A DNA stretch of 24,000 nt, from positions 58,013-82,012 of the forward strand of contig NZ_JBHXVP010000003.1 of assembly GCF_042672245.1 (NCBI RefSeq), written 5' to 3'. The translations under genes were made by a program, and so were the position numbers. This DNA is from Rhodococcus sp. NPDC127527 (lineage in GTDB: Bacteria > Actinomycetota > Actinomycetes > Mycobacteriales > Mycobacteriaceae). The notes below the pieces were generated by a model. That model worked only from the letters and a program-made list of their open reading frames with translations, was not told the origin of the DNA and did no database searches. Of the stretch, positions 5,729-18,986 are shown piece after piece. Numbering within the stretch: the first letter of the stretch is position 1; every line of letters starts with the position of its first letter.

Positions 5729-6034
5729 TTACCAGCTGGACTTGCGGACGCCTGGCAGTTCCCCACGATGGGCCATCTCGCGAACGCGCACACGGGACAG
5801 GCCGAACTTCCGTAGGTGACCTCGCGGACGTCCGTCCGCAGCGTCACGATTTCGCAATCGTACCGGACTCGCGTCGCGCGGCAGACGCTGCAGGGCGGCC
5901 TGGGCCGCGGCGCGCTCGTCGGCCGAGGTGGAGGGCAGGCGAATGGTCTCCTTCAGCTCGGCGCGACGCTCGGCGTACCGGGCGACGACCGCCTTCCGCT
6001 GCTCGTTCTTCGCGATCTTGGACGTCTTGGCCAT
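5729..6034 (-). CDS. rpsN2: 30S ribosomal protein S14, long 101-aa Cys-free (zinc-independent) form
   Basis: [28 protein letters not shown]...[28 protein letters not shown]. Long form with no CxxC motifs. Confidence 0.92.
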
Positions 6035-6036
6035 CT

Positions 6037-6201
6037 CTAGCGCTCCTCCCTGAAATCGACGTGTTTGCGGACCGCCGGGTCGTACTTGCGCAGCACCAGC
6101 CGGTCCGGGTCGCCCAGGCGGTTCTTGCGCGTCACGTAGGTGACGCCGGTGCCCGCTGTCGACTTCAGCTTGACGATCGGACGGACCTCGTTGCGGGCCA
6201 T
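6037..6201 (-). CDS. rpmG: 50S ribosomal protein L33, Cys-free paralog (not in the supplied ORF track; translated by hand)
   Basis: Reverse-strand hand translation gives [54 protein letters not shown] (54 aa). TAG at 6037-6039, ATG at 6199-6201 overlapping the rpmB2 stop (TAATG). No Cys residues. Confidence 0.9.
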
Positions 6202-6437
6202 TACAGCCGAACCCCCTGTGCGCGCAGTCGGGCGACGACGGCCTCGATTCCGTCGCGGTCGATGGTCTTGATGCCCTTGGCGGAGACGGTCAGCGTGATC
6301 CGCCGCCGCTCGCTCGGCAGGTAGTAGGTCTTGCGCTGGATGTTCGGATCCCAGCGCCGGCTGGTTCGGGTGTGCGAATGCGAGACGGACTTGCCGAAAC
6401 TCGGCGAGCGTCCGGTCACCTGGCAGTGTGCCGACAC
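6201..6437 (-). CDS. rpmB2: 50S ribosomal protein L28, alternative (zinc-independent) paralog
   Basis: GTG start at 6435-6437 gives (M)[77 protein letters not shown]. This closely resembles my memory of M. tuberculosis RpmB2. AAGGAGG RBS at 6443-6449. Confidence 0.9.
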
Positions 6438-6452
6438 CGCGGCCTCCTTGCT

Positions 6453-6471
6453 AACGAAAATCGTTTTCGAC
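6453..6471. promoter_or_regulatory. Zur-box-like palindrome 1 (aaCGAAAATCGTTTTCGac), immediately upstream of the rpmB2 RBS
   Basis: Core CGAAAA-tcg-TTTTCG at 6455-6469 is a 6-3-6 palindrome read directly. It resembles the actinobacterial Zur operator (TGAAAAT-N-ATTTTCA type) and sits in front of a zinc-independent ribosomal protein operon, the classic Zur target. Confidence 0.6.
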
Positions 6472-6507
6472 AATGGCGGGGTTTCACTGTAGCGTCGCGG
6501 TCGGTTA

Positions 6508-6525
6508 TTGACAATCGTTGTCGAA
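6508..6525. promoter_or_regulatory. Zur-box-like palindrome 2 (TTGACAATCGTTGTCGAA), immediately upstream of the COG0523 gene
   Basis: Imperfect palindrome sharing 13 of 18 positions with box 1, including the AATCGTT centre. The two centres are 54 bp apart, and the site ends 13 nt before the GTG at 6538. Confidence 0.5.
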
Positions 6526-6537
6526 AGGGGTGCTGTC

Positions 6538-7785
6538 GTGACCGACAGTCGAACGCCGCTCATCGTGATCGCGGGCTGGTCGGATGCCGCCGAATCCACC
6601 GCACGGTCTCTGCTGGCGGACGGGACGGTGCTGGTCCACCACGACCTGAGTCACCTCGGGGAGGGGGTGGTGCGCCGGACCGTGACCGACCCGGACGGGC
6701 GCACCCGCACCACCGTCCTGGAGCTCGCGCACGGCTGCGTGTCCTGCACGCTGCGGGAGGACCTGCTGCCGCTGCTGCGTCGACTGCACGCGCGCAGCTC
6801 GGTGCGGCGCATCGTGCTGCAGCTGGACCGGACGCTCGAACCGGAGGCGCTGTGCCGTGCGGTCGAGGACGTCGTCGTCGCGGGGGTCGTCGGGCAACTC
6901 GACGGCCCCGCGTCCAGGGACGTGCGGATCGAGGCCGTCGTCGTGTGCGTGGCCGCCGACAGCTGGCTCGACGACGCCACCGGAGACCAGGCCCTGGTCG
7001 AACGCGGACTCGGCGTCGGCGACGACGAGCGCACCGTCGCGCAGGTCGTGGTCGGGCAGGTCGAGTACGCCGACGCACTGGTCGTTGCGGGCGCGGGCGA
7101 GGACGGGTGGAACCAGGCCCGACTGCATGCGGTGCTGGCGCGGCTGGCCCCCGCCGCCCCGATCGACTGGATCGGAGACGACCTCGCTCCCGACGCGCCT
7201 CGACTGCTGACCCGGATCCCCGGCAGCGCCCGACGTGGCGCCGCCGCCGACGCGCACGCGCCGCTGCTGCGCGGTCAACCGCCGCTCGCGACGGACTGCG
7301 GCGTGAGCCTCGTCGAGTTCGTCGCCGAGCGGCCCTTCCATCCCGAGCGCCTGCACGAGGCTCTCGACGTGCTGCTCGACGGGGTCGTCACCGCGCGCGG
7401 GCGGTTGTGGCTGGCCACCCAACCGGACCGCGTGCTGTGGCTGGAGTCGGCGGGCGGGGGACTGCGGGTCGCCGACGGCGGGCGGTGGCTCGCCGCGATG
7501 ACCCCCGGCGAGCAGGAGCGGGAGCCGACCGCGCGGCGGGCGATGGCGGCCGTGCGCTGGGACGCGAGGTTCGGCGACCGGGACGTGTCCCTCGTGGTGC
7601 TCGCGCACGCCGCCGACCCGAGCGATATCGACCGCGCCCTGCAGTGGGCGCTGGTCACCGACGAGGAACTCGACTGCGAAGAGCAATGGCCGACATGGCC
7701 GGACCCGTTCGGGCACTGGCACCAGGACCCCTGCGCTTCGAGCGAGTCACCGTACAGCGACGTCAACAGAGAGGGCACGGCATGA
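6538..7785 (+). CDS. COG0523 (CobW/ZigA/YciC-type) family protein with degenerate nucleotide-binding motifs; Rv0106 / M. smegmatis Mrf-like
   Basis: Start chosen at the GTG at 6538 (RBS GAAAGGGG 7 nt upstream), giving (M)[15 protein letters not shown]. The GCVSCT motif replaces the canonical GCxCC, and there is no GxxGxGK[ST] P-loop. The C-terminal CobW_C-like region [25 protein letters not shown] closely resembles my memory of Rv0106. The stop overlaps the rpmE2 ATG (ATGA). Confidence 0.8.
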
Positions 7786-8033
7786 AGAAGAACATCCATC
7801 CCGACTACCACCCGGTGGTCTTCCAGGACGCGAGTACCGGGAGCGCGTTCCTGACCAGGTCCACCGTCACCGCTGAGCGCACCGTGGAATGGGCCGACGG
7901 CAACACCTACCCGCTGGTGGTCGTCGACGTGACCAACGAGTCGCACCCCTTCTGGACCGGCGCAGCCCGAGTGATGGACACCGCCGGCCGGGTGGAGAAG
8001 TTCGAACGCAAGTACGGCCGCCGCACACGCTGA
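7782..8033 (+). CDS. rpmE2: 50S ribosomal protein L31 type B (Cys-free, zinc-independent)
   Basis: [29 protein letters not shown]...[25 protein letters not shown]. No CxxC motif. These are the last 84 codons of the long 6372..8033 frame. Confidence 0.92.
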
Positions 8034-8047
8034 CCCCCTGCCCCCGC

Positions 8048-8100
8048 CTCTCCGATGTCACACCGGTTCGGTCAGACCTACCGAATGTGACATCGGAGAG
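8048..8100 (+). terminator. Long hairpin after rpmE2 (15-bp perfect outer stem plus 6-bp inner stem); probable factor-independent terminator without a U-tract
   Basis: CTCTCCGATGTCACA (8048-8062) pairs with TGTGACATCGGAGAG (8086-8100). The inner stem TTCGGT/ACCGAA encloses a 7-nt loop, with a 4-nt bulge. Confidence 0.5.
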
Positions 8101-8290
8101 ATCGGGGGCTGGGGCTACCATTTCTCCTCGCATGACGTTGTAGCCGCGCCGGTGACCCGAGCGTCGTCCCCCGGTCACGCAGCACGGACGGCTGTCCCGG
8201 CCGCCCGCGACCGCGCCGGATCGTCCGGACTCCCGGGTATGAATCCACGCTCCGGCTCGGCGTCGCGCAACGCCCATCCCGAGGAGCACC

Positions 8291-9760
8291 GTGCCCGACA
8301 ACACCGAGCCCGCCGCCGCAACGACGTCGGCAGCACCAGCACACCCCGACCAGCACCAGCCGGGGCTGTCCCGGCAGCTGTCCAACCGGCACATCCAGCT
8401 CATCGCCATCGGCGGGGCGATCGGCACCGGACTGTTCATGGGGTCCGGCAAGACCATCTCCCTCGCCGGACCGTCGGTGATCTTCGTCTACATGATCATC
8501 GGCACGATGCTGTTCTTCGTCATGCGGGCGATGGGCGAGCTGCTGCTCTCCAACACCGGCTACAAGTCCTTCGCGGACTTCGCCGCCGACCTGCTCGGCC
8601 CGTGGGCCGGGTTCTTCACCGGATGGACCTACTGGTTCTGCTGGATCGTCACGGGTATCGCCGACGTCATCGCGATCGCCGGCTACGTCTCGTACTGGTG
8701 GGGTTCGTTGCCGCTGTGGATCCCCGCCCTCGCGGCGGTGGCGCTGCTCGTCGGCCTCAACCTGCCCACCGTGAAGGCGTTCGGCGAGACCGAGTTCTGG
8801 TTCGCGCTGATCAAGATCATCGCGATCGTCAGCCTCATCGTGGTCGGCCTGGCCATGGTCTTCTCGCACTTCACCGCGCCCGGTGGCGCCGAGGCCTCGT
8901 TCGCCAACATGTGGAACGACGGCGGGTTCTTCCCGACCGGGGTCATGGGCTTCGTCGCAGGCTTCCAGATCGCGACGTTCGCGTTCGTCGGCATCGAACT
9001 CGTCGGTACCACCGCCGCCGAGGCCAAGGACCCCGAGAAGAACCTGCCCAAGGCGATCAACTCGATCCCGGTCCGCGTGATGCTCTTCTACGTGGTCGCC
9101 CTCGTCGTGATCATCTCGGTCACCCCGTGGCGGGAGATCACCGCCGACCGCAGTCCGTTCGTGGCCATGTTCACCCTCGCCGGCCTCGGCATCGCCGCCT
9201 CGGTGATCAACTTCGTCGTGCTCACCTCGGCCACCTCCTCGGCCAACTCGGGCATCTACTCGACCTCACGGATGGTGTACGGGCTCGCCCAGGAGGGCGA
9301 CGCGCCGGCGTCGTTCAGCAAGCTGACCAAGCGCCGGGTACCCGCGAACGCGCTCTACCTGTCCGGTGTGTTCCTGCTGGCCGGTGTGGTGATGGTCGCG
9401 GTCGGCAGCTCGATCATCGAGGCGTTCACCATCGTGACGACCATCTCGTCGCTCTGCTTCATCTTCGTGTGGTCGATCATCCTGATCAGCTACATCGTGT
9501 ACCGCAAGAAGCGCCCGCAGCTGCACGAGGCATCGAAGTTCAAGATGCCCGGCGGCGTCCCGATGTGCTACGTCGTCCTTGCCTTCTTCGTGTTCCTGAT
9601 CTGGGCCTTCACCCAGAAGGAGGACACCCTGCACGCCCTGCTGGTGACCCCCCTGTGGTTCGCGGGCCTCGGCGTGGCGTGGGCGGTGCTCCGGCGCCGG
9701 CCGATTCAGATGGCTCGGGCGGCGGCATTCAAGGGCGAGCAGGCCACGGCGGGCGAGTAG
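8291..9760 (+). CDS. cycA: D-serine/D-alanine/glycine:H+ symporter (APC superfamily, AAT family)
   Basis: Near-colinear with E. coli CycA as I remember it: NRHIQLIAIGGAIGTGLFMGSGKTISLAGPS.IFVYMIIG.MLFFVMRAMGELLLSN, FAFVGIELVGTTAAE.KDPEK.LP.AINSIP, INFVVLTSA.SSANSG..STSRM. GTG start at 8291 with a GAGGAG RBS at 8281-8286. Confidence 0.88.
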   Translation: MPDNTEPAAATTSAAPAHPDQHQPGLSRQLSNRHIQLIAIGGAIGTGLFMGSGKTISLAGPSVIFVYMIIGTMLFFVMRAMGELLLSNTGYKSFADFAADLLGPWAGFFTGWTYWFCWIVTGIADVIAIAGYVSYWWGSLPLWIPALAAVALLVGLNLPTVKAFGETEFWFALIKIIAIVSLIVVGLAMVFSHFTAPGGAEASFANMWNDGGFFPTGVMGFVAGFQIATFAFVGIELVGTTAAEAKDPEKNLPKAINSIPVRVMLFYVVALVVIISVTPWREITADRSPFVAMFTLAGLGIAASVINFVVLTSATSSANSGIYSTSRMVYGLAQEGDAPASFSKLTKRRVPANALYLSGVFLLAGVVMVAVGSSIIEAFTIVTTISSLCFIFVWSIILISYIVYRKKRPQLHEASKFKMPGGVPMCYVVLAFFVFLIWAFTQKEDTLHALLVTPLWFAGLGVAWAVLRRRPIQMARAAAFKGEQATAGE

Positions 9761-9765
9761 CCGCG

Positions 9766-10377
9766 GTGCTGGAGAGAATCATCGAACTCGCCGGGATCGT
9801 CGCGTTCGCGGCATCGGGTGCGATGGTCGGCGTGTCCAAACGACTCGACATCTTCGGGGTGTGCGCGGTCGGGGTGACCACCGGAATCGGCGGCGGCATC
9901 ATCCGTGACCTGCTGCTCGGTATCCACCCGCCCGCCTCGCTCAGCGAGTGGCCGAACTTCACCACGGCGCTGATCGCCTCGCTGCTCACCTTCTTCCTGC
10001 ACCCGGCGGTGCGGCGGCTCCGGATCGGGGTTCTCACGCTCGACGCGGTCGGCATGGGCCTGTTCGCCGCCTCGGGGTCGGCGCTGGCTCTGGCGGCAGG
10101 GGCGAGCGGCCTCGCCGCCTGCCTGATCGGCGGGACCGCGGCCGTCGGCGGCGGGATCCTGCGCGACATCCTGGTCAACGAGATGCCGCTGCTGCTGCAT
10201 CGCGACCTGTACGCGATACCGGCGCTGATCGGGTCGACGGTGGTGGTGGCCTGCTCGGGCCTGGGGCTGACCTCCAACACGGGCCTGGTCGTGGGGACGG
10301 TCTCGGCCTCGGTGATCCGACTGCTCGCGCTGTGGCGGCACTGGAGCCTGCCGGGGCCGCGGCTGGTCGACGACTGA
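9766..10377 (+). CDS. UPF0126 / TRIC-like membrane protein (Pfam Gly_transporter-type repeat pair)
   Basis: 203-aa, seven-TM-like protein with the two hallmark repeats GIGGGIIRD and AVGGGILRD. GTG at 9766 lies 5 nt after the cycA stop. This is the C-terminal part of the artefactual 8152..10377 frame. Confidence 0.8.
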   Translation: MLERIIELAGIVAFAASGAMVGVSKRLDIFGVCAVGVTTGIGGGIIRDLLLGIHPPASLSEWPNFTTALIASLLTFFLHPAVRRLRIGVLTLDAVGMGLFAASGSALALAAGASGLAACLIGGTAAVGGGILRDILVNEMPLLLHRDLYAIPALIGSTVVVACSGLGLTSNTGLVVGTVSASVIRLLALWRHWSLPGPRLVDD

Positions 10378-10405
10378 TCGGTCTCGGCGCAACTCCACCG
10401 ACACG

Positions 10406-10435
10406 CCTCAGCGACCTCTCAGCCGGATCTCAGTT
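10406..10435 (+). promoter_or_regulatory. MprA-box-like direct repeats upstream of mprA: CCTCAGCG-acc-TCTCAGCC-gga-TCTCAGTT
   Basis: Three 8-bp direct repeats with 3-bp spacers (11-bp phasing), read directly. The two 3-prime repeats (10417-10435) match the published M. tuberculosis MprA-box architecture of two 8-bp direct repeats separated by 3 nt. Confidence 0.6.
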
Positions 10436-10449
10436 CACAGGTAGAAACT

Positions 10450-11142
10450 ATGAGCATGCGCATCCTGGTGGTCGACGACGACCGTGCCGTGCGGGAATCG
10501 CTCCGCCGGTCCCTCACCTTCAACGGTTACACCGTCGACCTCGCGGTCGACGGGCTCGACGCGCTCGAGCAGATCGCCGCGGGCAGGCCCGACGCCCTCG
10601 TGCTCGACGTCATGATGCCCCGACTCGACGGCCTCGAGGTGTGCCGTCGACTGCGCAGCGCGGGCGACGACCTGCCGATCCTGGTGCTCACCGCGCGGGA
10701 CTCGGTCTCCGAGCGGGTCGCGGGCCTGGACGCGGGCGCCGACGACTACCTGCCGAAGCCGTTCGCTCTCGAGGAGTTGCTCGCGCGACTGCGCGCACTG
10801 CTGCGGCGGGCCGCCCCGGAGGTCGGCGCGGACTCGGAGACGATGTGCTTCGAGGATCTGACCCTCGACCCGGTCACCCGCGAGGTCACTCGCAAGGGTC
10901 GCTCGATCAGCCTGACCCGCACCGAGTTCTCGCTGCTGGAGATGTTGCTGGCGAACCCGCGTCGGGTGCTCAGCCGCAGCCGCATCCTCGAGGAGGTGTG
11001 GGGCTACGACTTCCCGACCTCGGGTAACGCGCTCGAGGTGTACGTCGGGTACCTGCGCCGCAAGACCGAGGCAGACGGGGAACCGAGGCTCATTCACACC
11101 GTCCGCGGTGTCGGCTACGTGCTGCGGGAGACGCCCCCGTGA
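10450..11142 (+). CDS. mprA: OmpR-family response regulator MprA
   Basis: Nearly identical over long stretches to M. tuberculosis MprA as remembered ([124 protein letters not shown]). The start could be the ATG at 10450 or the ATG at 10456. Confidence 0.93.
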
Positions 11143-12668
11143 TGGTTGCCCCCTTCGGACGCGGCGCGGCGCAGCGGTCCACCGCACCCGACGCATCGCC
11201 GGATCGACCGCTCGGGGCCGGCGGCGCCACGCGCCCGGACCCGGCGCCGGTACCCGAGATGCGCCCGCCCATGCCGCTGACCCGATCGGTGTCGCTGCGC
11301 TGGCGCGTCACCCTGCTGGCGGCCTCGGTCGTGGCCATCGCGGTGGCGGTCATGGCGATCGCCGCCTACGCGGTGGTCTCGCGTGCGCTCTACAACGAGG
11401 TCGACTCGCAGTTGCGCACCCGCTCGGCCACCCTGATCAACAGCAACCTCGACGCGCTCGACATCCGGACGATCTCGCTGGCCACCGTCTACTCCAACGA
11501 CATCAGCGTCGCGCTGATCTTCCCGGACATGAAGGTGTACATGCCGCCGGGCTCGAACGCGCCGATCGGTGACGCCGAGATGTCCGTCGCGCGCGGCGAA
11601 CACGACTCGGCCCTGCGGACCATCGCCGGTCAACGCGTCCTGAGCCAGAAGACGAATCTCGGCAGCACCCTGGTGATCGCCCAGCGGCTCGCGCCCACCG
11701 GTGAGGTGCTCGACCGCCTCGCCTGGGTGCTCTTCATCGTCGGCGGGTGCGGCGTCGGACTGGCGGCGGTCGCGGGAATGGCTGTGGGCCGCACCGGTCT
11801 GCGGCCGATCGGCAGGCTGACGGCTGCCACCGAGCGGGTGGCACGCACCGACGACCTCACCCCGATCCCGGTGACCGGCAACGACGAACTCGCCCGGTTG
11901 ACGGTCTCGTTCAACACGATGTTGCGGGCCCTCGCCGAGTCGCGGGATCGGCAGAGCCGGCTGGTGGCCGACGCCGGGCACGAGCTGCGGACGCCGCTCA
12001 CCTCGCTGCGCACCAATATGGAACTGCTCATCGCGGCCGGCCGACCCGGCGCGCCCGCCATTCCCGACGAGGACATGGCGGAGCTGCGCGCCGACGTGAT
12101 CGCCCAGATCGAGGAGCTGTCCACGCTGGTCGGCGACCTGGTGGACCTGGCCCGAGAGGATGCGCCGGAGACGGTGCACGAGCGGATCGACGTCGGCGAC
12201 GTCGTGGAGCGTTCGCTCGAGCGGGCCCGCAGGCGTCGCAACGAGGTCGACTTCGAGGTCGAGACCGTGCCGTGGTTCGTCTACGGCGACGGTGCCGGGC
12301 TCGCACGGGCCGTGCTCAACGTGCTCGACAACGCCGCGAAGTGGAGCCCGCCGGGTGCGCAGGTGCGGGTGCGGATGCGACAGTTGGATGCGGGGCACCT
12401 CGCGCTGACCGTCGACGACGCGGGACCGGGTATCCCGCCCGAGGATCGGCAACTGGTGTTCGAGCGGTTCCACCGGGCCACGGCCGCGCGGTCGATGCCC
12501 GGATCGGGGCTGGGCCTGGCGATCGTCCGGCAGGTGGTCGTCAAGCACGGCGGCACGGTGACCGCGGGGGAGTCCACACGGGGTGGGGCCCTGATCACCA
12601 TCGTGCTGCCCGGCGAGGCTGAGTTCGTCGCGGAGGGCCGTGCGGACAGCAGGATCTCGGCAAACTGA
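11142..12668 (+). CDS. mprB: Sensor histidine kinase MprB
   Basis: HAMP plus HisKA (DAGHELRTPLTSLRTN) plus HATPase (DNAAKWSPPG, GSGLGLAIV), colinear with M. tuberculosis MprB. The ATG at 11142 overlaps the mprA TGA. The ATG at 11259 (MRPPMPLTRSVSLRWRV) is an alternative that would remove a Pro/Ala-rich 39-aa extension, but GC3 in that extension is coding-like. Confidence 0.9.
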   Translation: MVAPFGRGAAQRSTAPDASPDRPLGAGGATRPDPAPVPEMRPPMPLTRSVSLRWRVTLLAASVVAIAVAVMAIAAYAVVSRALYNEVDSQLRTRSATLINSNLDALDIRTISLATVYSNDISVALIFPDMKVYMPPGSNAPIGDAEMSVARGEHDSALRTIAGQRVLSQKTNLGSTLVIAQRLAPTGEVLDRLAWVLFIVGGCGVGLAAVAGMAVGRTGLRPIGRLTAATERVARTDDLTPIPVTGNDELARLTVSFNTMLRALAESRDRQSRLVADAGHELRTPLTSLRTNMELLIAAGRPGAPAIPDEDMAELRADVIAQIEELSTLVGDLVDLAREDAPETVHERIDVGDVVERSLERARRRRNEVDFEVETVPWFVYGDGAGLARAVLNVLDNAAKWSPPGAQVRVRMRQLDAGHLALTVDDAGPGIPPEDRQLVFERFHRATAARSMPGSGLGLAIVRQVVVKHGGTVTAGESTRGGALITIVLPGEAEFVAEGRADSRISAN

Positions 12669-12676
12669 CAGGACGA

Positions 12677-12695
12677 TCTCAGGCCTCTCTCAGAC
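12677..12695 (+). promoter_or_regulatory. MprA-box-like direct repeat upstream of pepD: TCTCAGGC-ctc-TCTCAGAC
   Basis: 8+3+8 direct repeat read directly, 85 nt upstream of the pepD ATG. In M. tuberculosis pepD is a direct MprA target. Confidence 0.6.
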
Positions 12696-12779
12696 CGTCC
12701 GGGCAGTCTCGAAGACAACGAGATCGAATCGAAGGCCGCGCCCTCGAGGCGCGCAGGGGAGAACGGACATCACACAGCC

Positions 12780-14234
12780 ATGAGCGACGACCAGCACAAC
12801 CAGGGTCAGGACTCGCCCTGGGCCCCCCAGCCCGCCACCAACCAGCCGCCGCAGACCCCGCAGGCGCAGTCGGACGACCAGACCGCGGTGAACCCGGCGG
12901 CCCACAACCCGGCCGAGCAGTACCCGACCGTGGCGCATCCGACCGCCCAGCACCAGCAGTACCAGCAGCAGGCGTACCAGCAGTCCGGGTACCAGCAGCC
13001 GTCGTACGGCAGCTACCAGCAGCAGGATGCGTACGGCGCGACCGCCCAGTACCCGACCGCGGGTGGCCCCTCCACCGCCGGCATGGCGACACCGATGGCC
13101 GGCGCCCCGGCCGCGGGCAAGCCGAAGTCCGGCCGCACCGCGATCGCGGCGGGCGCCATCGCGCTCGCGCTGGTCAGCGGCGGCATCGGCGGCGCGGTGG
13201 GCGCGTGGTCCGCCAACAACGGGAGCGGTTCGGGCCCGGTGACCAACGCGCTCAACGCCCCGCGGACGAACGCGACCCAGACCGCGAACGCCCCGGCCGG
13301 CTCGGTGCAGTCGGTTGCCCAGAAGGTGCTGCCGAGCGTCGTGCAGATCCAGGTCACCGGCAGCCGCGCCGAGGGTGAGGGGTCCGGCATCGTGCTGTCC
13401 TCCGACGGTCTGATCCTGACCAACAACCACGTCGCAGCGGGCGCCGGACCGGACGGCAAGCTGGCGGTCGCGTTCTCCGACGGCTCCACTGCCACCGCCA
13501 AACTGGTCGGCACCGACCCGACCTCGGACATCGCGGTGATCAAGGTCGACGGCCGCACCGACCTCACCCCCATCGAGCTGGGCACCTCCGCGGATCTGCA
13601 GGTCGGTCAGCCGGTGGTGGCGATCGGGTCGCCGCTCGGCCTCGCCGGCACCGTCACGAGCGGCATCATCTCCTCGCTCAACCGCCCGGTGTCCACCAGC
13701 GGAGAGTCCGGAAACCAGAACACCGTCATCGACGCGATCCAGACGGACGCGGCGATCAACCCCGGCAACTCGGGCGGCGCGCTGGTGAACATGGACGGAA
13801 AGCTGATCGGCATCAACACCGCGATCGCCACCCTCGGCGGGGAGGCCGCCAGCGGACAGCAGGGCGGCTCGATCGGGCTCGGCTTCGCGATCCCCGTCGA
13901 CCAGGCCCGCCGCGTCGCCGACGAGCTGACCAAGACCGGCAAGGCCAGCCAGGCGATCGTCGGAGTGTCGGTGTCCTCGCGGGACACCTCGCACGGCGCG
14001 GGCGTACAGGACGTCACCCAGGGCGGTCCCGCCGACCAGGCGGGCATCCCGAAGGGCGTGGTGATCACCAAGGTCGACGATCGGATCATCGACAGTGGTG
14101 ACGCGCTGATCGCGGCGATCCGCTCGCACGCCCCCGGCGACAAGGTGAAGGTCACCTACACCGATGCCAACGGCGGAAATTCGAAGACTGTCGAGGTCAC
14201 CCTCGCCGCGGCGCCCACCACGGGCGGCCGGTGA
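12780..14234 (+). CDS. pepD: HtrA/DegP-family (S1C) serine protease with C-terminal PDZ domain, PepD-like
   Basis: Catalytic-region motifs GSGIVLSSDGLILTNNHV, TDPTSDIAVIKV and INPGNSGGALVN. PDZ region GVQDVTQGGPADQAGIPKGVVITKVDD. One TM helix (aa 120-143) follows a Q/Y/P-rich cytoplasmic tail. Confidence 0.88.
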   Translation: MSDDQHNQGQDSPWAPQPATNQPPQTPQAQSDDQTAVNPAAHNPAEQYPTVAHPTAQHQQYQQQAYQQSGYQQPSYGSYQQQDAYGATAQYPTAGGPSTAGMATPMAGAPAAGKPKSGRTAIAAGAIALALVSGGIGGAVGAWSANNGSGSGPVTNALNAPRTNATQTANAPAGSVQSVAQKVLPSVVQIQVTGSRAEGEGSGIVLSSDGLILTNNHVAAGAGPDGKLAVAFSDGSTATAKLVGTDPTSDIAVIKVDGRTDLTPIELGTSADLQVGQPVVAIGSPLGLAGTVTSGIISSLNRPVSTSGESGNQNTVIDAIQTDAAINPGNSGGALVNMDGKLIGINTAIATLGGEAASGQQGGSIGLGFAIPVDQARRVADELTKTGKASQAIVGVSVSSRDTSHGAGVQDVTQGGPADQAGIPKGVVITKVDDRIIDSGDALIAAIRSHAPGDKVKVTYTDANGGNSKTVEVTLAAAPTTGGR

Positions 14235-14242
14235 TGATCACT

Positions 14243-14276
14243 CCGAACGGCCGCGCCTCCGGGCGCGGCCGTTCGG
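14243..14276 (+). terminator. Intrinsic terminator after pepD
   Basis: Perfect 15-bp stem CCGAACGGCCGCGCC / GGCGCGGCCGTTCGG with loop TCCG, starting 9 nt after the pepD stop. Confidence 0.7.
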
Positions 14277-14338
14277 CCGTATCCCGTATTTACGGCCAGG
14301 TCGGTGCCACCGGCCGGTCAGCCACTACCGTAGGAGTC

Positions 14339-14836
14339 ATGGACATCGAAACCCCGCTGGCCGGCCGCGCTCTCGTGGTGATCGTCGACGATCGAACCGC
14401 CCACGGCGAGGGGGTGGATTCGATCGGACCCCTGGTCGCCGAGCTGCTCGGGGAGGCAGGTTTCCTCGTCGATGCCACCGTGGCGGTGTCCGCGGACGAA
14501 GTGGAGATTCGCAACGCGCTCAACACCGCGGTGATCGGCGGCGTCGACCTGGTGATCTCCGTCGGTGGCACCGGTGTCTCACCGCGTGACGTCACCCCCG
14601 ACGCGACCGCCGCCGTGCTGGACCGGGAGATCCCGGGTATCAGCGAGGCGCTGCGGTCGTCGGGACTCGCCGCCGGGGCGCTCGACGCCGGCCTCTCGCG
14701 CGGGCTGGTCGGAGTGTCCGGCAGTACCCTGGTGGTGAACCTGGCCTCGTCCCGCGCCGCCGTGCGCGACGGAATGGCCACCTTGACCCCGCTCGCCGGC
14801 CAGGTGATCGGCGAACTCTCCTGGATAGAGGACTAG
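14339..14836 (+). CDS. moaB2: MogA/MoaB-family molybdenum cofactor biosynthesis protein
   Basis: ATG at 14339 with an AGGAG RBS at 14332-14336. ALVVIVDDR...DLVISVGGTGVSPRDVTPDAT...PGISEALR is typical of the MoaB/MogA fold. Its position after pepD matches Rv0984. Confidence 0.85.
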   Translation: MDIETPLAGRALVVIVDDRTAHGEGVDSIGPLVAELLGEAGFLVDATVAVSADEVEIRNALNTAVIGGVDLVISVGGTGVSPRDVTPDATAAVLDREIPGISEALRSSGLAAGALDAGLSRGLVGVSGSTLVVNLASSRAAVRDGMATLTPLAGQVIGELSWIED

Positions 14837-15027: not shown

Positions 15028-15314
15028 GCCGACGCGGGTGCGTGCGACACGTCCGTGAACATCTTCCCGACGTTGTCGCCTCCAGCCGTCCCCCGATCGC
15101 GGCTCGTGCCCGTGAATTGTTTCCTTAACACTGTGTGACGACTCACCCCGCACTATCGAAAACTATTCATTGCCAGGGGACTCCGCCCTGGTTAGCCTCC
15201 TCGCGAGTCAGCTCAGGAATGGCCCGACGGGCCGTCGATGGGTAGGTCCGCCCGGTGGAGGCGCGGTTTGTCGATGGCGACTCATCGGTAAAGCGTGCAC
15301 CAACAAGTAGTCAC

Positions 15315-15326: not shown

Positions 15327-15429
15327 CTGCGGTAATCACAGTTGGCAATACTTCGCCGGGTCTTATGGGACCACTCGTCAATCTCGGCGGTCGAGGTTGA
15401 GTAGTAGCAGAACGTGATGAGGGGAACGA

Positions 15430-16101
15430 ATGAGCGAGAACCGCAAGTCCGGCCTGCGCCGTGGCGCCCGAATCGTCGGTGGCGCGGCCGTTGCGGCCGT
15501 TGCCGTCGGCCTGGTGTCCACGGGTGTGGCGGGTGCCGACACGTTCGTGCCGTTGCCGGACGGGTCGAAGACCACGCCGGGTGTGGTCGTCTCGCGTACG
15601 GGTGAGAGTGCGTTGATCTCGCCGTCGTTGGCGGCCAACGGTGCCGGTCGTACGGCGTGGGTGTCGGGCACGGTCACCGCGGACGTGTCGTCGATCGCCA
15701 AGGAGGGCGAGGTGGGTCCGTTCAACGGTGCGAAGAACGATCCGGGTACGAACAACTCGTCCACGCACGGGGTTTCGCGGATCAGCACCGGGTACATCGT
15801 GGGGTGCCAGGTGGACATCACGGGTCTGGGCGGGTCGTTCGGTGGCGGTATCGACCTGAACGGTCCGTCGTTGTCGGCGTCGTTGACGGTGCCGGTGTCG
15901 GCGGGTCAGGTGAAGTTCGTGAACGTGGCGGGCAAGGACATCAAGAAGAACGGCAAGTACTCGGTGCAGTTCCAGGACACCCAGTTGGAGATCCAGAACT
16001 GCGGCGGGTACGCCCAGGCCCGGTCCTACACCGTGGTGGAGATCGTGGGGGACAACTACTCCAAGACCACCCTGTACGGGCAGCCGTTCTCCATCGGCTG
16101 A
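15430..16101 (+). CDS. MspA-family porin, type A, copy 1 (223 aa)
   Basis: Signal peptide ending VAGA followed by DTFVPLPDG. Landmarks alignable to M. smegmatis MspA: WVSG (cf. WFHSGRAK), GYIVGCQ (cf. GYQIG), and C-terminal TLYGQPFSIG (cf. TTYGEPWNMN). GAGGGG RBS 5 nt upstream. Confidence 0.85.
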   Translation: MSENRKSGLRRGARIVGGAAVAAVAVGLVSTGVAGADTFVPLPDGSKTTPGVVVSRTGESALISPSLAANGAGRTAWVSGTVTADVSSIAKEGEVGPFNGAKNDPGTNNSSTHGVSRISTGYIVGCQVDITGLGGSFGGGIDLNGPSLSASLTVPVSAGQVKFVNVAGKDIKKNGKYSVQFQDTQLEIQNCGGYAQARSYTVVEIVGDNYSKTTLYGQPFSIG

Positions 16102-16153
16102 TCGCGGCTTCGCCGCCTGATATTCCGAAATCTGAACCCTCGAAAGGGAATTG

Positions 16154-16831
16154 ATGAACGCCAGCAAGACCGGCCTGCGTCGCGGGCTGCAGATCGCTTC
16201 CGTCGGTGCGGCCGCTGCCGTGGCCGTCGGCCTGTTCTCCGTCGGTGCCGCGAACGCGGACACGTTCGTGCCGTTGCCGGACGGCAGCATCTCCGAGACC
16301 CTGGTCGACGGGACGATCGTGAAGATCACCCGCACCGGCGAGTCGGCGAACGTGTCGCCGTCGTTGGGTGCGACGCCGTTGCACCGCAACGTGTGGGTGT
16401 CGGGTTCGGCGAAGGTCGAACTGATCGGCCCGAACGCCGACGGTGGCAAGATCGAGCCCGGCTACGTGGTGGGGTGCCAGCTGACCCTCGGTGGCAAGTC
16501 CGGTGCCGACTCGGGCATCGGGTCGAACTACGCGGGCGACAAGACCACCCAGTCGGCGAAGGGGTCGGGCACCGTCTCGATCGGACCGGGCCAGGCCGTG
16601 AACCACCGGCTGCTCGACCTGGAGAAGGCCGACGACTACGGTTCCGAGTCGCACTCGGGCGCCAACAGTTTCAAGGGCAAGGGCGGCAGCGTCACGTGGG
16701 CCGACGAGACCATTGCCGTCAACGGGTGCGCCGGCTACGCCCAGGCCCGCAACTACGTCAAGGTCACCGCGAACACCAAGAACGTCAACAGCACCATCAC
16801 CCTGTGGGGTCAGCCGTTCAGCATCGGCTGA
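16154..16831 (+). CDS. MspA-family porin, type B, copy 1 (225 aa)
   Basis: ATG at 16154 (RBS GAAAGGGA). Signal peptide ending ANA followed by DTFVPLPDG; HRNVWVSGSAK, GYVVGCQL, SIGPGQ (cf. MspA GNGPGIQ), GCAGYAQAR, TLWGQPFSIG. Starts 52 nt after the A1 stop. Confidence 0.85.
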   Translation: MNASKTGLRRGLQIASVGAAAAVAVGLFSVGAANADTFVPLPDGSISETLVDGTIVKITRTGESANVSPSLGATPLHRNVWVSGSAKVELIGPNADGGKIEPGYVVGCQLTLGGKSGADSGIGSNYAGDKTTQSAKGSGTVSIGPGQAVNHRLLDLEKADDYGSESHSGANSFKGKGGSVTWADETIAVNGCAGYAQARNYVKVTANTKNVNSTITLWGQPFSIG

Positions 16832-16911
16832 CCCATCGGTGACCTGAATCACTTACGGACGGAACGGGTTACGCTCACATGTGAGACCGATCACGATTCG
16901 ACCCCTCTTGC

Positions 16912-16954
16912 GAAGCCGGGGACCACGCGGAGAAACCCGCGGGTTCCCGGCTTC
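16912..16954 (+). terminator. Intrinsic terminator after porin pair 1
   Basis: 18-bp stem (one G-U pair, one bulged A) with a 6-nt loop: GAAGCCGGGGACCaCGCGG-agaaac-CCGCGGGTTCCCGGCTTC, followed by GTGGTGTTTCG. Confidence 0.7.
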
Positions 16955-17104
16955 GTGGTGTTTCGCCCCGTTCCCGCACAGTTAACGATGCGTAAAAGTG
17001 AGGTTCGCACCCTTTCGGACGTCCGTCCAAGGTTCTAGCTTTGCGGGGCAACCAAGCTCAGCCCCCGACCGCCGGGGCTGGGCCGACACCTGTGAGGGGT
17101 ACGA

Positions 17105-17776
17105 ATGAGTGAGATCAGGAAGTCCGGCCTGCGCCGCAGCACCCGAATCGGTGGTGTCGGCGCCGTTGCCGCCGTCGCGATCGCGCTGACGTCCACCGGC
17201 GCCGCGAGCGCCGACACCTTCGTCCCACTGCCCGACGGGCAGAAGGCGGGTCCGGGCGCGGTGGTGACGCGGACCGGCGAAAGTGCGTTGATCTCGCCGT
17301 CGTTGGCGGCCAACGGCGCGGGTCGCACGGCGTGGGTGTCGGGCACCGTCAGCGCGGACGTCACGGGTGTCGCCGAGGAAGGCGAGGTCGGTCCGTGGAA
17401 CGGTGCGACCAACGATCCGGGTACGAACAACTCGTCCACGCACGGGGTTTCGCGAATCAGCACGGGCTACATCGTCGGGTGTCAGGTCGACATCACCGGA
17501 CTGGGCGGTTCGCTCGGTGGCGGAATGGACCTGTCGGGTCCGTCGCTGTCGGCATCGATGACGGTGCCGGTCTCGGCCGGTCAGGTGAAGTTCGTGAACG
17601 TGGCGGGCAAGGACGTCAAGCGCAACGGCAAGTACTCGGTGCAGTACCAGGACACCCAGCTCGAGATCCAGAACTGCGGCGGCTACGCCCAGGCCCGGTC
17701 GTACACGGTGGTCGAGATCGTGGGCAACGACTACTCGAAGACCACCTTGTACGGGCAGCCGTTCAGCATCGGCTGA
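17105..17776 (+). CDS. MspA-family porin, type A, copy 2 (223 aa)
   Basis: Colinear with A1. Same signal-peptide architecture (ASA then DTFVPLPDG) and the same Cys positions (126 and 191). Confidence 0.85.
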   Translation: MSEIRKSGLRRSTRIGGVGAVAAVAIALTSTGAASADTFVPLPDGQKAGPGAVVTRTGESALISPSLAANGAGRTAWVSGTVSADVTGVAEEGEVGPWNGATNDPGTNNSSTHGVSRISTGYIVGCQVDITGLGGSLGGGMDLSGPSLSASMTVPVSAGQVKFVNVAGKDVKRNGKYSVQYQDTQLEIQNCGGYAQARSYTVVEIVGNDYSKTTLYGQPFSIG

Positions 17777-17852
17777 TCGGGTTCGGCTCGTCCAAGTCCT
17801 CGTTCACTTCCGTCTCGACTGATGTGAGACGGATTCCCCCAGAGGGGTTTTC

Positions 17853-18530
17853 ATGCGTACTTCCAACAAGAGCCTGCGTCGCGGGCTGCAGATCGCTTCC
17901 GTCGGTGCGGCCGCTGCCGTGGCCGTCGGCCTGTTCTCCGTCGGTGCCGCGAACGCGGACACCTTCGTACCGCTGCCCGACGGGTCGATCTCCAAGACCC
18001 TGGTCGACGGCACCGTGGTGACGGTGACCCGCACCGGTGAGTCGGCGACGGTGTCGCCGTCGATGGGGGCGACGCCATTGCATCGCAACGTGTGGGTGTC
18101 GGGATCGGCGAAGGTCGAGATCTCCGGACCGAACGCCGACGGCGGCAAGATCGAACCCGGCTACATCGTGGCCTGCCAGCTGACCCTCGGTGGAGAGGCG
18201 GGTACCGAGTCCGGGACGGGTGCGGGCTGGGACGGTACGCCGGGCGAGCCGTCCGCCGGGGGTACCGGCAACGTGTCGATCGGTCCCGGTCAGGCGCAGG
18301 CGTTTTCGGTGCTCGATCTCGAGGCGCCGGACGACTTCGGCGGGGAGTCGCACTCGGGTGAGAACTCGTTCACCGGCAACTCGGGTTCGGTGACGTGGGC
18401 GGACTCGACGATGGGTATCGACGGTTGTGCCGGGTACGCGCAGGCGCGGTCCTTCGTGAGGGTGAAGGTCAACACGGAGAACGTGTCGAGCACGGTCACC
18501 CTGTGGGGCCAGCCCTTCAGTATCGGCTAG
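17853..18530 (+). CDS. MspA-family porin, type B, copy 2 (225 aa), strongly acidic variant
   Basis: Colinear with B1 and identical to it over signal-peptide residues 8-35. AGAGGGG RBS. Starts 76 nt after the A2 stop. Confidence 0.85.
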   Translation: MRTSNKSLRRGLQIASVGAAAAVAVGLFSVGAANADTFVPLPDGSISKTLVDGTVVTVTRTGESATVSPSMGATPLHRNVWVSGSAKVEISGPNADGGKIEPGYIVACQLTLGGEAGTESGTGAGWDGTPGEPSAGGTGNVSIGPGQAQAFSVLDLEAPDDFGGESHSGENSFTGNSGSVTWADSTMGIDGCAGYAQARSFVRVKVNTENVSSTVTLWGQPFSIG

Positions 18531-18546
18531 GAATGCTCGAAACAGG

Positions 18547-18578
18547 CTGGGCCCGTACCGTTCTCGGTACGGGCCCAG
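18547..18578. terminator. Bidirectional terminator between porin B2 and the convergent mscL
   Basis: Perfect 14-bp stem CTGGGCCCGTACCG / CGGTACGGGCCCAG with loop TTCT. Confidence 0.7.
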
Positions 18579-18596
18579 GCCGGGTTCGAGGTGGGG

Positions 18597-18986
18597 CTAC
18601 TGCCTGCGGAGCGCCGGGCTCTCGGCCAGCAGGTCGCGAATCTCGCCGAGCAGCTCGTTGTCGGTGGCCGTCTCGACGACGGGCTTGCCGAACCGCTGCT
18701 TGGCGTGGTTGTACGGCATGATGAGCACGAAGTAGACGACCGCCGCGATGATCACGAAGTTGATTGCTGCGGTGAGAACCGCGCCGATGTTCACGAATGT
18801 CGCCGGATTGTCGGTGATCTGGAAGCCGAAGCCCATCTCGGCGCTGCCGATGGAGGCGATGAGCGGATTGACGATGTTGTTGGTGAAGGCGGTGACGATG
18901 GCGGTGAAGGCCGCGCCGATCACGACCGCTACCGCGAGGTCGAGCACGTCGCCCTTCATCAGGAAGTCCTTGAAACCCTTGAGCAT
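18597..18986 (-). CDS. mscL: Large-conductance mechanosensitive channel
   Basis: MLKGFKDFLMKGDVLDLAVAVVIGAAFTAIVTAFTNNIVNPLIA is the canonical MscL N-terminus. True ATG at 18984-18986; the longer ORF-track start is unlikely. Confidence 0.93.
   Translation of the reverse strand: MLKGFKDFLMKGDVLDLAVAVVIGAAFTAIVTAFTNNIVNPLIASIGSAEMGFGFQITDNPATFVNIGAVLTAAINFVIIAAVVYFVLIMPYNHAKQRFGKPVVETATDNELLGEIRDLLAESPALRRQ

Follow-up and report, generated by a model that had tools for sequence, protein, structure and literature searches.

Between a moaB2-like gene and mscL, the 24,000-nucleotide stretch of Rhodococcus sp. NPDC127527 analysed here (contig NZ_JBHXVP010000003.1, positions 58,013 to 82,012; hereafter the window) carries four porin genes on the forward strand, A1, B1, A2 and B2, in which two sequence types alternate. 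We consider it somewhat probable that these genes form two separately transcribed bicistronic operons specifying two hetero-oligomeric porins of the NfpA/NfpB type that differ in charge selectivity, a judgement that covers the whole statement, hetero-oligomer assembly and the difference in selectivity included. Porins of the mycomembrane govern how nutrients and antibiotics enter mycolic-acid bacteria, and they also serve as nanopore sensors. For this genome the result amounts to routine annotation, since each of the four genes already bears the name "MspA family porin": A1 is 100% identical to a protein so annotated in Rhodococcus sp. NPDC127528, and in the closest other genome, that of R. 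spelaei, identities are 90-92%, with B2 at 92% to its ortholog. The comparative findings reach beyond annotation: an A-B unit that stays intact, cassettes that evolve in concert, the combination of a constant A with a variable B, and the conserved division of Rhodococcus B subunits into neutral and acidic forms.

Two subunit types of the MspA family and their counterparts in Nocardia farcinica

The earlier note on this DNA had described four open reading frames (ORFs) of 223, 225, 223 and 225 amino acids, each with a signal peptide followed by DTFVPLPDG and a C-terminus of the form (Y/W)GQPFSIG, and had divided them into two alternating types; the ORFs and their translations bear out both descriptions. 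By inspection, every N-terminus comprises a basic region, a hydrophobic core rich in Ala, Val and Gly, and an A-x-A motif directly ahead of DTFVPLPDG, so that all four proteins appear to carry a Sec signal peptide. The C-termini read LYGQPFSIG in the A type and LWGQPFSIG in the B type, and B1 has an alternative TTG start at 16151 that would lengthen it to 226 amino acids. At the protein level A1 and A2 are 85.7% identical and B1 and B2 74.2%, as against 37-39% between types; the corresponding DNA identities are 84.7%, 76.8% and about 58%.

Searched against the MspA family as the earlier note had suggested, all four proteins exceed the PF09203 gathering cutoff of 22.9 bits (A1 88.1, B1 139.9, A2 86.4 and B2 155.8 bits). 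In A1, B1 and B2 the best-matching stretch runs from profile positions 1-5 to the end at position 179 of 179, and A2 matches in two stretches, the better of which covers profile positions 50-179. No NCBIfam model matched the four porin proteins. AlphaFold2 monomer models of B2 and A1 had mean predicted local distance difference test scores (pLDDT) of 57.5 and 65.1, with the rim strands at about 80-90 and the Gly-rich segment of 31-38 residues that sits at the position of the MspA stem below 50. When these two models were compared with the PDB, the sole matches at E <= 0.001 were MspA (1UUN) and its rim domain (2V9U), with a probability of 1.00; B2 matched 1UUN_A with E 9.3e-7 and 2V9U_A with TMt 0.80, and A1 matched 2V9U_A with E 3.2e-6 and TMt 0.77 and 1UUN_A with E 1.1e-5. 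The A1 and B2 models thus show the beta-sandwich fold of the MspA rim domain. Together, these data make it close to certain that the four genes are MspA-family porin genes.

Sequence searches by themselves did not reach MspA, and the fold comparison was therefore needed to make the link: neither phmmer searches with A1 and with B2 nor a profile built from 13 B-type sequences retrieved 1UUN from the PDB at E <= 1, and hhalign to MspA returned a probability of 3%. In a pairwise BLASTP comparison, B2 aligned with MspA at 27% identity (E 3e-5), collinearly and from the first rim strands as far as the C-terminus, using an MspA sequence of which 183 of 184 residues agree with 1UUN_A. Of the MspA landmarks that had been proposed to align with these proteins, three do so (WFHSGRAK with VWVSGSAK, GYQIG with GYIVA and TTYGEPWNM with TLWGQPFSI), and the fourth does not, GNGPGIQ and SIGPGQA remaining unaligned in either alignment. 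Membership of the MspA family and fold is therefore solid, whereas at 27% identity the proteins do not belong to the close Msp subfamily formed by MspA-D of M. smegmatis. They share with MspA the Pfam family, the rim-domain fold and, probably, the character of Sec-exported mycomembrane pores, but differ from it in the stem, which has about 49 residues in MspA and 31-38 in the A and B proteins. The Msp paralogs of M. smegmatis differ from the present genes in another way, being single genes that vary by at most 18 residues and not pairs of two types.

Homologs of both types occur at about 60-66% identity across Nocardia and Rhodococcus, and the N. farcinica genome contains two A-B pairs, which lie apart from each other. 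The published nfa49590 primers are an exact match to one of them, situated between moaB2 and mscL near 5.176 Mb of IFM 10152; the other adjoins cytochrome bd oxidase genes, and its A gene is an exact match to the published nfa15890 primers. Identity to the nfa15890-type protein is 63-64% for A1 and A2, and identity to its downstream partner is 56-62% for B1 and B2, with B1 at 56-57% to the B-type proteins of N. farcinica; cross-type comparisons between the window and N. farcinica give 35-41%. In Klackta et al. 2011, nfpA is reportedly nfa15890 and nfpB nfa15900. Published work identifies nfa15890 as a porin gene and describes the N. farcinica channel as made of NfpA and NfpB. According to Klackta 2011 in the form in which PMC9233653 cites it, NfpA and NfpB form channels only together.

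By sequence, then, A is of the NfpA type and B of the NfpB type, in agreement with the correspondence drawn in the earlier note, and the two types stand here as adjacent, co-oriented A-then-B genes with spacers of 52 and 76 nucleotides (nt). The likeness extends to the PF09203 subfamily, the gene order with a short spacer, the lengths (224 and 225 amino acids in NfpA/NfpB), the signal peptides, a DTFVPLPxG N-terminus and a GxPFS(I/L)G C-terminus. We also considered the N. farcinica pair at moaB2-mscL as a candidate for NfpA/NfpB and rejected it, since the primer match and the IFM 10152 coordinates identify it as nfa49590 and its neighbour; the window cassettes are accordingly positional counterparts of the nfa49590 pair and not of the characterised NfpA/NfpB pair. 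N. farcinica differs from the window in that its pairs lie at two loci and both of its B proteins are acidic, whereas the window pairs are tandem and their B proteins differ by about 10 charge units.

RjpA of R. jostii RHA1 was reportedly described by Somalinga and Mohn in 2013. PMC8399759 presents it as a porin with a substrate-uptake phenotype (cholate). In RHA1, too, the moaB2-mscL site is occupied by an A-B pair. A further comparison is offered by R. ruber, in which PorARr and PorBRr are encoded by two adjacent genes in a proposed operon, and by PorARc of R. corynebacteroides, which is described as 41% identical to MspA (Piselli et al. 2022, PMC9233653). The R. ruber genes resemble those of the window in being adjacent Rhodococcus genes of the MspA family, but their products differ in size from the window subunits, at 267 and 213 amino acids, and each of them formed pores by itself.

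Distribution and concerted evolution of the A-B cassettes

Scanning one genome per species with A1 gave 77 loci, in which ORFs were classed by BLASTP against the window proteins. A same-strand B gene came next after 120 of 123 A genes, and the remaining three A genes abut contig ends. The A-B unit is thus essentially never broken, which supports obligate hetero-oligomers well beyond N. farcinica. The order HtrA-moaB2-A-B-A-B-(mscL)-SAF-Zn ribbon was found in at least 43 of the 77 loci, including those of R. spelaei, R. tukisamuensis, R. koreensis, R. opacus and many Nocardia species; an HtrA/PepD-like gene lies upstream of the porins in 46, and 24 are dispersed single A-B pairs, while N. callitridis has one pair. 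R. spelaei reproduces the gene order of the window throughout, from response regulator, histidine kinase, HtrA, moaB2 and a small ORF through A-B-A-B to mscL, SAF and Zn ribbon.

This comparison of the moaB2-mscL interval, which the earlier note had recommended, separates the two halves of its proposal that an old porin locus had expanded here. The expansion is not local: A-B-A-B is shared with R. spelaei and at least 43 of the 77 Rhodococcus and Nocardia loci and is the common state at this site in Nocardiaceae, not an innovation of this genome. The age of the locus is supported, as a porin gene occupies the same neighbourhood in Mycolicibacterium; in M. smegmatis the series mprA, mprB, pepD, moaB2 runs from MSMEG_5488 to MSMEG_5485, with mspC close by as MSMEG_5483, as the earlier note had suggested for mspC (PMC13098993, PMC11656743). 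The A-B-A-B locus, which adjoins the mprAB-pepD-moaB2 envelope-stress operon, has a long history and a wide distribution in Nocardiaceae. Whether the duplication itself is ancient or has recurred is judged, across genera, from parsimony and from a faint positional signal (in the 3' part of B, identity is 57-58% at the same position and 54-56% across positions), because the position-specific upstream blocks described below are confined to one clade.

Several loci depart from this arrangement. An uncultured Nocardiaceae metagenome-assembled genome has three consecutive A-B pairs between moaB2 and mscL (about 7763-13200), so the tandem array can also expand. In 14 Nocardia loci of the order HtrA-moaB2-A-B-A-B-SAF-Zn ribbon, no mscL is detectable between B2 and the SAF-domain gene, and mscL has been lost or moved from the porin site in one Nocardia lineage. 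At an R. oryzae locus outside moaB2-mscL, two A-B pairs are convergent (A+ B+ B- A-, about 9926-13500), from which it follows that pairs disperse and re-cluster as units. In the drafts of R. maanshanensis, R. daqingensis and R. oryzae, contigs break inside the porin array, one ending after HtrA-moaB2-A-B and another starting with A-B-mscL; the position-specific upstream blocks mark these broken ends as two halves of one A-B-A-B locus, and copy numbers from short-read assemblies are unreliable for this reason. R. jostii RHA1 (CP000431) and DK17 have one A-B pair, and the close strain CP118321 has the full A-B-A-B set, the genes lying at about 6001-9110 of these loci. The single pair of RHA1 and DK17 joins the cassette-1 upstream sequence to an A gene, the acidic B2 and the cassette-2 downstream sequence, and is either the product of an unequal crossover within the identical tract described next or a collapsed assembly repeat.

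The two cassettes also evolve in concert. Within every genome the two A copies share 70-100% identity and the two B copies 70-88%; between genera, same-position and cross-position identities are equal, at about 64% for A and about 59% for B, and positional orthology is visible among close relatives only, as between the window and R. spelaei (same-position against cross-position, 92 and 85% for A, 93 and 73% for B). In the window, A1 and A2 differ by a synonymous divergence (dS) of 0.44. For B1 and B2 dS rises along the gene, from 0.09 over codons 1-35 through 0.46 (36-109) and 0.84 (110-172) to 1.27 (173-225), and the cassettes agree at every position of a 60-nt segment beginning at 16199. A tract of about 960 bp is 100% identical between cassettes in R. 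koreensis, R. opacus and Rhodococcus sp. NPDC127593; it takes in the A gene from its start, the spacer and about 200 bp of B, after which identity falls sharply to 55-78%. Uniform duplication cannot give such a pattern; gene conversion or partial re-duplication can. Of the papers that a search of the literature collection consulted returned for gene conversion among MspA porins, none dealt with actinobacterial porins.

Homogenisation does not affect the two subunits equally. At eight of eight Rhodococcus tandem loci the A copies are 12-20 percentage points more alike than the B copies, a trend that is weaker in Nocardia, and in all 43 comparisons among the dispersed and tandem pairs of six Rhodococcus genomes the A paralogs were more alike than their partner B paralogs (mean 92% versus 74%). 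All four genes are under purifying selection, with ratios of nonsynonymous to synonymous divergence (dN/dS) of 0.09-0.38; the ratio is 0.22 for A1/A2 and 0.38 for B1/B2, and within B it is highest in the stem segment (0.52) and 0.18-0.23 in the regions flanking it. In their N-terminal rim part, B1 and B2 share 86% identity. The meaningful difference between the cassettes lies in B.

Charge classes, putative transcription units and the channels they may form

We defined the stem segment as the stretch between GYxVxCQ and GPGQ. It is Gly-rich and comprises 34-38 residues in B and 31-33 in A, and a stem shorter than that of MspA would fit the lesser chain length of Rhodococcus mycolic acids (C30-54 versus C60-90; PMC9233653). 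The window stems differ in charge, that of B1 (LTLGGKSGADSGIGSNYAGDKTTQSAKGSGTVSI) having a net charge of +1 and that of B2 (LTLGGEAGTESGTGAGWDGTPGEPSAGGTGNVSI) of -4. The same division holds for the mature proteins at all seven Rhodococcus A-B-A-B loci that were scored (the window and six relatives, covering both the R. spelaei and the R. opacus groups), where B1 ranges from -1 to -3 and B2 from -12 to -19. It recurs in CP118321 (B1 -2, B2 -18), and the A subunit stays between 0 and -4 in Rhodococcus loci. In dispersed pairs, for example in R. maanshanensis and R. oryzae, B also falls into two charge classes. The cation selectivity of MspA has been attributed to acidic residues, on which basis a pore of A and B2 is predicted to be strongly cation-selective and a pore of A and B1 weakly selective, the sequence of cassette 1 giving no clear prediction of a cation-selective channel. 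Natural neutral and acidic B subunits on a constant A are thus material with which to test how stem charge relates to selectivity in hetero-oligomeric MspA-type pores.

An invariant pair of cysteines, C126 and C191 in A1 and A2 and C108 and C192 in B1 and B2, distinguishes both types from MspA, which has no cysteine. The pair lies in the contexts GY.V.CQ, just ahead of the stem, and (N/G)C(G/A)GYAQAR, and may form an intrachain disulfide that clamps the base of the stem.

The layout of the interval fits two independently controlled bicistronic units, as the earlier note had proposed. SD-like (Shine-Dalgarno-like) motifs of the form GAGGGG, AAGGGA or AGAGGGG lie 5-8 nt ahead of each start, folding of the two intra-pair spacers gave no significant structure, and a strong hairpin ends each pair. 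Both hairpins seen before (16912-16954 and 18547-18578) were recovered by folding, at free energies (dG) of -44.3 and -44.2 kcal/mol; the one after B1 is likely the terminator of cassette 1, and the inverted repeat between B2 and the convergent mscL, which is also stable when read from the opposite strand (-42.2 kcal/mol; z -6.5 on the forward and -7.5 on the reverse strand), is likely a bidirectional terminator. This arrangement is general across 115 surveyed pairs: the A-B spacer has a median of 71 nt and its best hairpin a median of -12 kcal/mol, the best 60-nt hairpin in the 150 nt past B has a median of -39.7 kcal/mol, and a hairpin of -30 kcal/mol or below follows 97% of B genes as compared with 29% of random windows from the same loci. 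A scan for terminators with a T-tail gave one weak candidate, at 15097-15115.

Upstream of the cassettes the sequences differ, their mutual similarity starting about 40 nt before the A start codon. In the clade of R. spelaei, R. maanshanensis, R. oryzae, R. daqingensis and R. tukisamuensis, the cassette-1 block GTTGGYAATACTTCGCCGGG occurs only upstream of the first A gene, in six of six cases, and the cassette-2 block CACRGTTAANGATNNGTAAARGNGAG only upstream of the second A gene, in four of four; neither was detected in the R. opacus group or in Nocardia. We regard both blocks as candidate promoter or regulatory elements.

According to the mechanism that we favour, A1-B1 and A2-B2 would each encode both subunits of one MspA-fold mycomembrane porin. 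All four proteins would be exported by Sec and, as modelled, fold into the MspA rim beta-sandwich, with the Gly-rich amphipathic stem hairpin inserting into the mycolic-acid outer membrane. A and B would then co-assemble, probably as an alternating A4B4 octamer by analogy with NfpA/NfpB, A serving as a near-constant scaffold and B as the variable subunit that sets the charge of the pore. In cassette 1 the partner of A would thus be a near-neutral B1 and in cassette 2 a strongly acidic B2, so that the cell could make both a general pore of weak selectivity and one that is strongly cation-selective, each presumably under its own promoter, while gene conversion or unequal crossing-over would homogenise A and the 5' end of B and leave the 3' two-thirds of B cassette-specific. 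A wider proposal, which we advance only tentatively and would rather doubt than assert, is that the Rhodococcus A-B-A-B locus is a two-channel system on a shared scaffold. Gene conversion would homogenise A and the 5' rim part of B, and selection would maintain two charge classes in the stem and C-terminal region of B, so that one locus beside the MprAB-PepD envelope-stress operon would give a weakly selective and a strongly cation-selective pore under separate promoters; the same logic would account for the many dispersed pairs of species such as R. maanshanensis and R. oryzae.

Several points weigh against the proposal of two hetero-oligomeric pores of different selectivity. The Msp porins of M. 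smegmatis, MspA-D, are treated as homo-octamers. Assembly of A with B is argued here from the analogy with N. farcinica, and the separate transcription units are read from the arrangement of the sequence, in a region of 66% G+C in which a simple sigma-70 scan predicted 0 promoters. The lumen-lining residues are assigned from sequence alternation only, in stems modelled at pLDDT below 50. Nocardia A-B-A-B loci have no consistent charge split between their B proteins, so the split is not general to the A-B-A-B locus. The sample of loci, finally, was seeded with A1, which may modestly inflate the similarity of A copies among dispersed paralogs; the list was retained down to 60% identity, so A paralogs above about 65% should not have been missed.

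The four proteins could instead be independent homo-oligomeric MspA-like porins whose adjacency reflects co-regulation only. Each has a complete MspA-type rim domain, and the R. ruber precedent speaks for such a reading and against ours, PorARr and PorBRr each forming pores alone in vitro and their mixture giving no distinct hetero-channel and resembling the sum of both (PMC9233653). We nonetheless consider it unlikely, since the closest characterised relatives, NfpA and NfpB at 56-64% identity, need both subunits, and since B follows A in 120 of 120 assessable cases and the pairs disperse as units, an unbroken pairing that self-sufficient subunits would hardly explain. Hetero-oligomers might also form without regard to cassette, free mixing (A1B2, A2B1 or mixed B1/B2) yielding stochastic octamers and a graded population of pores. 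For A the question of combinatorial mixing is largely moot, because A1 and A2 are near-identical and so nearly interchangeable (86% here, 100% in the R. opacus group), and the likeness of the N-terminal rim in B1 and B2 makes compatible interfaces probable. Separate terminators and different conserved upstream blocks, however, suggest that the cassettes can be expressed at different times, and we hold free mixing to be improbable.

A remaining alternative treats one cassette as a redundant back-up copy, a recent duplicate that resembles the other because it is young. The dS between paralogs (0.44-0.57) is indeed just above that between orthologs in the window and R. spelaei (0.29-0.53), RHA1 and DK17 apparently manage with one pair, and MspB and MspD of M. 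smegmatis have been described as back-up porins (PMC13098993). Yet a recent, uniform duplication cannot put a 100% identical A beside an 80% identical B, nor does youth agree with an A-B-A-B order that two genera share at this site, in at least 43 loci, or with position-specific upstream blocks conserved across a clade. Redundancy also fits poorly with the purifying selection on all four genes and with the neutral and acidic B proteins at every scored Rhodococcus locus and again in CP118321, and we judge this alternative very unlikely.

Features of the window and its gene neighbourhood

Table 1. Coordinates of the porin cassettes, their putative control elements and neighbouring genes in the window.
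Feature	Position	Strand	Description
A1	15430-16101	+	NfpA-type MspA-family subunit, 223 aa (amino acids); mature net charge -1; Pfam MspA 8.4e-25
B1	16154-16831	+	NfpB-type subunit, 225 aa from ATG; mature net charge -2; Pfam MspA 1e-40
A2	17105-17776	+	NfpA-type subunit, 223 aa; mature net charge -4; Pfam MspA 2.7e-24
B2	17853-18530	+	NfpB-type subunit, 225 aa; mature net charge -12; Pfam MspA 1.4e-45
Cassette-1-specific upstream block	15341-15360	+	GTTGGYAATACTTCGCCGGG; invariant in four-species Rhodococcus alignment; unique in window
Hairpin after B1	16910-16956	+	followed by UGGUGUUUCG; dG -44.3 kcal/mol, z -4.96, 0/200 shuffles as stable
Cassette-2-specific upstream block	16977-17002	+	CACRGTTAANGATNNGTAAARGNGAG; conserved in four Rhodococcus species; unique in window
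Perfect 14-bp inverted repeat, B2/mscL convergent gap	18545-18581	.	arms 18547-18560 and 18565-18578, 100% complementary
Two-component system, mprA-like response regulator	10450-11142	+	Pfam
Two-component system, mprB-like histidine kinase	11139-12668	+	Pfam
HtrA/PepD-like serine protease with PDZ domain	12780-14234	+	Trypsin_2 4.7e-34, PDZ_2 1.2e-12
moaB2-like gene	14231-14836	+	MoCF_biosynth, PF00994 5.2e-24 (Pfam)
Small ORF, about 64 aa	14833-15027	+	overlaps moaB2 stop; tblastn
mscL	18597-18986	-	129 aa from ATG at 18986; ORF runs on to 19172

The genes around the cassettes are listed in Table 1. The mprA-like protein has Response_reg and Trans_reg_C domains and the mprB-like protein HAMP, HisKA and HATPase_c domains (Pfam). 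The moaB2-like gene probably starts downstream of 14231, its R. spelaei ortholog having 185 amino acids; the Pfam MscL match (4.1e-34) begins at residue 63 of the long ORF, and R. spelaei MscL has 129 amino acids. No mobile-element genes were seen among the ORFs scanned in the window, in keeping with the earlier note, and scans of the window for Rfam families and tRNA genes returned no matches. The G+C content of the porin block is 0.64-0.67, compared with about 0.70 around it. A mobile-element or horizontal origin was considered and rejected, as the flanks are housekeeping genes, the order is kept in many species and the G+C content is just slightly lower.

The small ORF that overlaps the moaB2 stop is 94% identical to a 64-residue gene called in R. 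spelaei and 57% identical over 47 residues to a 63-residue N. farcinica gene (tblastn), with the conserved motif ARLARIFGDVLP(D/E)TTRDER...W(L/W)R.Q.PPHH. The called homologs have no recorded Pfam match, and the window copy has no obvious standard start codon. Further upstream, only about the last 80 residues of the forward-strand ORF at 6372-8033 (about 7780-8030) match Ribosomal_L31, which makes a short L31 paralog the probable actual gene. In the same neighbourhood of R. spelaei and R. jostii, a CobW-family gene and paralogs of L28, L33, L32 and L31 precede the two-component system, a grouping that resembles a zinc-responsive cluster of alternative ribosomal proteins.

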